DNA of 64,000 nt from NCBI GenBank assembly GCA_951813565.1, contig OX638351.1, positions 768,001-832,000 on the forward strand. Reading direction: 5' to 3'. The notes beneath the pieces were generated by a model. The model did no database searches and was not told the DNA's origin. It was given only the letters and a program-made list of their open reading frames with translations. The position numbers were made by a program, and so were the translations under genes. This document shows, one piece after another, positions 62,826 to 63,450 of the stretch (within the stretch, counting starts at the first letter, position 1; the number at the start of each line of letters is the position of its first letter). Source of the stretch: an uncultured Poribacteria bacterium (lineage in GTDB: Bacteria > Poribacteria > WGA-4E > WGA-3G).

Positions 62826-63450
62826 CATAACTGTCAATTTAGTGATCCGCCACCCTGGTAGGCGCGTTTTGTAAATGCGCCTACCGTTTGCGTATTTTGC
62901 ACGTAAAGTGCCTTAAGTTGACACCTATGTGGCGGACCACAGAAACCCATAACTGTCAATTTAGGAGACAAAGCCCGTCACGACTTGTAGGGCGGGTCTC
63001 TGTGCCCCGCCATATCTGATGTATCCAAACAACGGGCGGGCACAGAGACCCGCCCCTACAATGGAGCCGGGATGCTCTGAAAGAATATCGGGCTTACAAA
63101 GCCCTCCCACAAGAAGGTGTATCCTTAAGTTGACACCTATGTGGCGGACCACAGAAACCCATAACTGTCAATTTAAGCTTATAATTACCAGATTGTTTCT
63201 TGTGGGAGGGCTTTCTAAGCCCGATTTTGTAAATCTCAACCTTTTAAATCCAAATCAACGCTGAATACGCCAAATCAAGAAATCAACGGTATGAATCATG
63301 GCGAATGCCATACGCGCATTCGTCTTTAGTCATTCACCGGGTATGAATGCCTATTGGCATTCCCCGTATGGTATTCATCCAAATCAACGCAGCATGCGCG
63401 TATGGCATGCTGCGGGGTTGAAAACCCTCCTACAAGAAGGTGTATCCTTA
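62826..63450. repeat. Tandem array of three CATA...TATG-ended MITE cassettes with different REP cargo
   Basis: 53-bp exact direct repeat at 62911-62963 and 63123-63175; cassettes 62826-62929, 62948-63141, 63160-63450. Confidence 0.85.

Follow-up and report, generated by a model that had tools for sequence, protein, structure and literature searches.

Poribacteria carry in their intergenic DNA a very small dispersed repeat, here called the unit, which consists of two variable bases, a near-invariant 7-base tag and one hairpin, is about 34-36 nt long and does not code for protein. The unit is real and probably mobile. We tentatively read it as a minimal non-autonomous element that travels in single-stranded form and may depend on a Y1 HUH transposase supplied in trans. 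The window analysed here is a stretch of 64,000 nt from one uncultured Poribacteria genome (contig OX638351.1, positions 768,001 to 832,000). An original prediction made on it had described short modules, each a conserved leader followed by a stem-loop, which a dedicated activity would write into REP hairpins.

Anatomy and distribution of the unit

All the sites at which a leader and stem-loop had been listed are real. The 8-base leader is found 16 times in the window against 3.95 expected, a count reached by 0/100 shuffles; nine of the 16 copies belong to units, and the other seven are in genes and look like chance. The claim of a discrete unit with defined ends, which is inserted repeatedly and even into itself, was also borne out. 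Terminal inverted repeats and target duplication are absent, and in this the unit departs from the definition of a MITE. The bottom pair of the hairpin includes the last tag base. Two types can be distinguished, a short-stem type of 33-35 nt with a 9-bp stem and a bulged-stem type of 35-36 nt with a small bulge near the stem foot. The genome holds 588 clean units (468 short-stem and 120 bulged), and looser tag matches number 1,015 in 546 clusters. The tag is under strong constraint, and its exact form is present in 699 of the 729 hairpin matches to the short-stem pattern, both strands being counted. Another hairpin, in which the first six tag bases lead straight into an 11-bp stem, occurs in three copies (G000:C1:209860, 210232 and 211745).

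The proposed covariation of the stems holds as well: at four positions, 91.7% of 420 cells are paired and 41 double changes are seen, a level that 0/500 shuffles reach and slid controls approach only to 42% or less, with the qualifications that the search pattern fixed 4/10 pairs, that the copies are related, and that template switching also perfects palindromes without selection. The hairpin forms in each of 7 folded strands from five sites, with z values of -2.7 to -10.9. A covariance model built from 44 copies matches 16297-16329, 56613-56645(-), 11197-11229(-) and 32409-32441(-), all within its training set, and 21601-21634, 14670-14711 and 16176-16209 outside it. No Rfam family matches the unit at gathering scores. 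Judged by a crude ORF mask, under which 17% of the genome counts as intergenic, 350 of the 366 clean clusters lie between genes. Units show no orientation bias relative to genes (75 sense, 92 antisense), and unit strands divide 233 vs 217 by replichore, the GC skew being too weak to place the replichores. One bulged unit is inside an apparent transposase gene of a four-copy family (G000:C1:4876794).

The unit is lineage-specific and spread over two Poribacteria genera. An 11-base form of the leader is found 519 times in the 5.43-Mb genome, against 4 for the reversed control, in 13-297 copies in 18/18 genomes of the same genus, and in 4-12 copies in 12/12 genomes of other families. A scan of 185,579 genomes returned at least 115 loci; among the 80 loci listed, 78 are titled Candidatus Poribacteria; of the other two, one is a terminator-like hairpin that matches by chance, and the other, from an unclassified MAG, holds true nested units. 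The short-stem type is present in 38/40 genus genomes (0-383 copies, with 383 in G006). A pattern biased to the bulged type matches in 38/44 sister-genus genomes (0-41 copies) and gives at most 2 matches in each of 7 genomes from four other genera, one of which has a few true copies. Viral contig sets gave 1, 0 and 120+ pattern matches, and none of the 80 examined has a full stem; plasmid and phage sets gave no unit match.

Insertion sites, junctions and mobility

Features of the unit in the window (positions are those of the window; + and -, strand of the unit)
Positions	Strand	Feature	Remark
11197..11230	-	Diverged offset-register unit	Covariance model
14660..14721	.	Double-tag palindrome	Likely formed by crossover of an inverted pair of units
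16174..16208	+	35-nt bulged-stem unit where a REP meets a MITE; target has lost two to three bases	
16295..16328	+	Single 34-nt unit in a REP of the family that also holds the stack; precise register	Empty junction in 6 copies
16297..16303		Tag, example copy	
21599..21633	+	35-nt bulged-stem unit at C|G of a REP arm; precise register	13 identical copies
32410..32443	-	Decayed unit in REP arm	Covariance model
56613..56646	-	Offset-register unit, starts and ends with G, replaces two REP-loop bases	
63197..63437	.	Host REP doublet, two inverted arms, stack in right arm	Sequence
63251..63270	+	Unit 1 (short-stem, 34 nt), 5' half: two bases, tag, left stem, first two loop bases	
63271..63278	+	Unit 2 (bulged-stem), leader start, in unit 1 loop at C|G	
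63279..63296	+	Unit 3 (bulged-stem, offset register), 5' part; replaces one base of unit 2 tag	
63297..63324	.	Unit 4, hairpin, decayed tag, inverted loop; replaces four unit 3 stem/loop bases	
63325..63339	+	Unit 3, 3' part, ends in terminal G	
63340..63365	+	Unit 2, hairpin	
63366..63379	+	Unit 1, 3' half	
63380..63413	+	Unit 5 (short-stem, 34 nt), head-to-tail at C|G re-created by unit 1	

The most complex site had been described as a 164-bp stack beginning at 63251. It is indeed a stack of units, but its length is 163 nt (63251-63413), base 63414 being the target G, and it resolves without remainder into five units. Unit 1 went into the C|G of a REP arm, and the genome has this junction empty in 38 copies. 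The position of unit 3 within the tag of unit 2 accounts for an apparent doubled leader. Unit 4 is matched by the covariance model at 63300-63324 (-) with 31 bits, outside the training set; unit 5 has 18 identical copies in the genome and a match at 63382-63414 that belongs to the training set. The first 30 nt of the inner block, counted from 63271, have 57 copies in the genome and the first 40 nt have 21, so that the inner part of the stack came in already assembled. Iterative stacking thus stands as far as self-insertion is concerned, but part of this stack was copied as a block. Across the genome, nested units sit at few positions: at C|G in the loop, at the 3' foot and, in bulged units, in the tag.

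Around these sites lie several other repeats and multi-copy genes. A multi-copy DDE transposase gene (Pfam DDE_Tnp_1_3), likely of IS982 type, starts about 55 bases after the stack (63470-63943, minus strand, and past the window end). Two MITE-like families with terminal inverted repeats are interleaved with REPs (62911-62963, 63123-63175, and 16108-16129 with 16539-16560). A large paralogous family in which a sigma-70 (ECF-like) domain is fused to BNR/propeller repeats occupies 11451-14579, 37405-39594 (assigned by DNA similarity only) and 56768-59875.

Junctions of the unit fall into two registers. In the precise register, the unit starts with CA, ends with C and sits between C and G, and nothing is lost or duplicated; its 5' junction is C|C. 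The exact empty 16-base junction exists in the genome for 202/234 short-stem CA units and for 56/104 bulged ones. After related sites were collapsed, 29 of 35 precise-register sites are C|G, and 16 of the 35 are C|GGG, compared with 4.9% of intergenic CG; the last target base before the insertion is C in 32/35 and is the only base fixed. The offset register has the same unit length shifted by one base, starting with G (sometimes A) and ending with CG; mostly 1-4 target bases are replaced on the tag side, while the hairpin side is constant. Sixteen offset-register families were counted by hand. In two REP families the empty sites have A in 116/120 and 139/139 copies and never G, and the filled sites have G, which indicates that the base was replaced and not selected. 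A third REP family has a G variant (25 copies), and replacement is ambiguous there. In a hand-picked tally of the 16 families, the flank 3' of the hairpin is GG in 13/16 and CC in 3/16.

These registers change the reading of some sites. A 36-bp module had been thought to replace an A at 21599; the simplest account is a 35-nt unit at C|G in a G-variant arm, but replacement as such is real in the offset register. The G-variant REP arm does exist empty, at 12 vs 205 A-variants in the genome and 14 vs 17 in loci of relatives. Likewise, a head-to-head pair had been noted at 14659-14722. The pair is present, but it belongs to a set of 35 double-tag matches, in many of which the two flanks derive from unlike repeat contexts, and it is therefore likely a recombination product, not a mobile form. 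Empty and filled sites both exist, as was claimed, but they are paralogous repeat copies and not alleles.

Evidence from other genomes bears on mobility. G012 and G040, with flanks that are for the most part 85-100% identical, were compared reciprocally at 47 sites, of which 19 are shared and 28 differ; 84 further clusters had no ortholog in the DNA compared. One difference is a clean 35-nt unit indel (L259:2340 vs L279). Nearly all the others concern whole repeat blocks of 100-300 nt, which are either found in one genome only or exchanged for another block, so that most unit copies move as cargo. At two G003 sites no alignable counterpart was found across the repeat block in G049. Between sister genomes, MITEs of 250-320 nt are present in one and absent from the other (L277:8633 in G012 vs L261; L212:9520 vs L231); their terminal repeats are those of a transposase family of 439 aa that has 19-25 copies in G000, and one of them carries a unit as cargo. 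At many intergenic points where G012 has one repeat block, G040 has an unrelated block of similar size, which resembles the deletion-coupled insertions of Haloquadratum.

The 11197 unit is spanned without difference by a 9,982-nt contig of the independent run X1, and the 14659 pair by contigs of the independent runs X1 and X8, so these two sites are not artefacts. Among 15 joints listed (of 78) in the run contigs, none skips a single unit. That the units merely derive from the ends or from pieces of an ordinary IS or MITE, or arose in assembly, is highly improbable and already largely refuted. Many copies do lie inside MITEs and REP doublets, and a parent could be extinct, but the multi-copy IS ends examined do not have the tag, contigs from independent runs carry two sites, and the lack of an Rfam match and the presence of the short-stem type in 38/40 genus genomes speak against it too. 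None of the outcomes named beforehand as contrary to the original prediction appeared: the IS ends examined lack the tag, one unit is present in one sister genome and absent from another, and independent contigs carry two of the sites.

As to the idea that modules are written into REP hairpins, they are found there, but the idea is weakened. Clusters touch a repeat in 331/366 cases against 46% of intergenic CG, while in a laxer test collapsed sites are next to repeats in 73/90, compared with 0.65-0.72 for intergenic CG taken at random. Once families are collapsed, little preference for REPs is left beyond a modest one, and the association comes mostly from intergenic location, the C|GG(G) preference and later co-amplification.

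Candidate mechanisms of movement

Fixed length, fixed ends and a constrained tag argue for an activity that defines the ends. A 34-mer without inverted ends or duplication would be handled best as single-stranded DNA. Y1 HUH enzymes are described as binding a hairpin, using bases at its 5' foot as a guide, cutting at dinucleotides on either side and joining the strands, and as giving tandem arrays (PMC3333891, PMC8266576). In Haloquadratum, an IS605 derivative of 52 bp with a single palindrome appears to be mobile (PMC3119063). In the mechanism that we tentatively favour, such an enzyme, of RAYT or IS200/IS605 type and supplied in trans, would bind the folded hairpin together with the tag that adjoins its 5' foot. 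The two bases before the stem, CG, would pair with C|G at the 3' foot of the unit and at the target, on the model of TnpA-REP, in which AG of GTAG selects C|T. Precise insertion would re-create a C|G, and head-to-tail stacks could follow. The offset register may arise when this chemistry acts on the other strand, or when the free end of the target is trimmed before it is joined; trimming of 3'-OH ends has been proposed as a source of variation for TnpA-REP (PMC3333891, PMC8266576). After rare true insertions, REP doublets and MITEs would copy the filled site, and recombination between copies may give chimeras, inverted loops and double-tag forms. The guide rule predicts C|G, and this fits the 3' end and the target but not the C|C at the 5' end. 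On the opposite strand, 8 of the 16 offset families have C|T at the hairpin-side junction and 3 have C|A; group 3 TnpA-REP cuts two dinucleotides, C|T and C|A (PMC8266576). This dinucleotide tally is only a lead because it was hand-picked and has no null, and REPs of GTAG type supply such sites.

Y1 genes are available, with ten in the genome and matches in 39/43 genomes of the family searched. This favours the Y1 HUH reading, as does the finding of RT in 18/40 genus genomes and of neither Ku nor IS110 in this genome. Other results of the search for the enzyme tell against it. Y1 genes are equally common (42/47) in genomes of families with only background leader counts, and they were not found in 3/25 genus genomes that have units (G001, G010, G044). 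A Y1 profile search of the DNA examined found no Y1 gene adjoining units. Among relatives of one RAYT query and the genome's ten Y1 matches, 6/30 RAYT-like loci hold a unit vs 7/30 control loci, and none is flanked by units; 26 unit copies examined in five low-copy genomes have no enzyme gene alongside. Judged by eye, the guide base and the target base do not change together. A parent IS was sought in this genome at the ten Y1 loci and on either side of seven query proteins, which stand for three TnpB families, another IS605-type element, a DDE family and two single-copy genes, and the ends there, those of IS605 type included, lack the tag. G000 has at least 36 tnpB copies in three families and five IS200-type tnpA matches. 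HUH/RAYT strand transfer, one of three mechanisms raised by the original prediction, still fits best of the three, but with no linked gene. A stronger form of it is rather doubtful, namely that one hairpin serves as both ends, two foot bases choose the target by pairing and either strand is used to give the two registers, so that 34 bases would be a complete peel-and-paste substrate.

Another explanation, unlikely but worth weighing, is a repair patch: where RAYTs or hairpin nucleases have nicked or gapped the repeat-rich intergenic DNA, the damage would be mended by template switching of the host polymerase onto an existing copy through 1-5 bases of microhomology, with no dedicated transposase. 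Units of the offset register do show short homologies at both junctions besides their loss of 1-4 target bases, and inverted loops, chimeras and double-tag forms point to frequent template switching; between sister genomes, whole blocks are swapped. But random ends predict variable flanks, whereas the junctions fall within about two bases of the unit ends; the tag hardly varies, no target base is lost in the precise register, and Ku was not found in the 95% complete genome. IS110 was not found there either, and the genome has one tyrosine recombinase. An attC/tyrosine recombinase origin was rejected since the junctions are not in the tag, as judged against the core consensus, and off-target integration by Cas1 was rejected since no repeat-length duplication is seen.

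Some other single-strand enzyme, such as a HUH protein like a relaxase or rolling-circle Rep, or a host enzyme, might instead read the opposite strand, where a hairpin, a conserved 7-9-base stretch and a nick site would follow one another as in an origin of transfer. On that strand the unit does run from variable stem through conserved single-stranded stretch to cut, an order described for relaxases in PMC8266576, and the idea would explain why no Y1 gene is linked. It is nevertheless distinctly unlikely: when 4,192 crudely called proteins were scanned for HUH motifs, 36 HUH-like matches came up, none of them by eye an obvious relaxase or Rep, and the viral and plasmid sets yielded no carrier.

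The addition of modules templated by a reverse transcriptase (RT) is disfavoured, and the proposed master template next to an RT or RAYT/HUH gene was not found. A small stable RNA reverse-transcribed into nicks would prime on the target and have an exact hairpin end but an imprecise tag end, and the offset register, with its constant hairpin end and its base loss at the tag end, has this form. The genome moreover has two RTs. However, one of these is DRT4 and the other is beside cas1, RT was found in 18/40 genus genomes and not found in 22/40 (including G006 with its 383 copies, G012, G040, G017 and G042), and the absence of orientation bias to genes adds to the case that this route is very unlikely. 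The RT in the window (43749-45284, plus strand) is the DRT4 defence RT (PADLOC E 9e-157); it was rejected as the mover, with no unit upstream of it or near it. Before it, at 43466-43626, is a 27-nt inverted repeat pair that looks like another REP doublet. The second RT gene, directly beside cas1 (G000:C1:3989138-3991839), is likely CRISPR-associated. G015, G016, G043 and G051 have 12-17 RT matches, many on small contigs or one long-frame block, possibly from host-derived contamination.

The tentatively preferred Y1 HUH reading can be put to experiment, since exact predicted cut sites in two registers make the question testable with a few oligonucleotides and a handful of candidate Y1 proteins. 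Those intact in this genome are three of RAYT-like kind, one IS200-like TnpA family and one further TnpA. The family offers hundreds of copies and dozens of independent junctions in about 80 genomes. No host function is indicated, and very small mobile repeats were already known. If it does move as single-stranded DNA, the unit would rank among the smallest mobile DNAs. If the single-hairpin substrate were true, it would be the smallest defined transposition substrate in bacteria, it would point to the mover of Nostoc-type small dispersed repeats, and it would represent an unusually compact, re-targetable single-strand insertion system. The turnover of intergenic DNA in these sponge symbionts is fast.

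Comparison with known small mobile repeats

No published description of the unit was found in the literature searched. The main text of PMC3733652 does not contain the tag sequence; the supplements of PMC3733652 and PMC6006769 list repeat families and could hold it. A linked RT with a master template, as in a retron, a DGR or another RT product, was not found. The statement that no named element has this anatomy was too strong, because Nostoc SDRs and the 52-bp terminal-only PATEs are close precedents.

The unit works like a REP or a terminal-only PATE but belongs to neither, since its tag, linked gene, parent and target length differ. With REP, BIME and REPIN sequences and their TnpA-REP (RAYT) enzymes (PMC8266576, PMC3333891, PMC3116915, PMC3733652, PMC6006769) it shares a conserved tag at the hairpin 5' foot, intergenic location, hundreds of copies, tandem growth, dinucleotide junctions and the lack of duplication. 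In contrast to them, its tag is not GTAG, GTGG or CGTC, its mobile form is a single hairpin with exact empty sites and not an inverted doublet (REPIN), no RAYT gene examined is flanked by it, and it inserts into REPs. The terminal-only PATE of Haloquadratum, a 52-bp single-palindrome IS605 derivative with six strain-specific insertions (PMC3119063), likewise has one palindrome and neither inverted repeats nor duplication. The unit is smaller, its target is of 1-2 bases whereas that of PATE is a fixed 4-6 bases, and among the Y1 loci and TnpB families of this genome there is no parent IS605 with these ends. SMR-A of Haloquadratum also inserts into palindromes of other elements without duplication (PMC3119063), but SMRs have terminal inverted repeats and 80-110 bp, and the unit has neither.

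How repeats shorter than 40 bases move has been an open question since the Nostoc SDRs. SDR1-8 of Nostocaceae are very short, dispersed and precisely inserted at a defined target position, and the unit is like them in being under 40 nt, dispersed and inserted whole at a defined position. In the work of Elhai and colleagues from 2008, these SDRs reportedly have a shared secondary structure and are nested in themselves and in minitransposons. SDR5, of 21 nt, inserts between bases 3 and 4 of HIP1 (PMC4390886, PMC5861425, PMC13756078), and its function was still called unknown in 2026 (PMC13756078). The unit differs in that it comes from another phylum, has 34-36 nt, uses C|GG(G) and not HIP1 as target and occurs in two registers, the comparison being one of descriptions. 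By this analogy, it fits the loose kind of very small mobile repeat to which the Nostoc SDRs belong.
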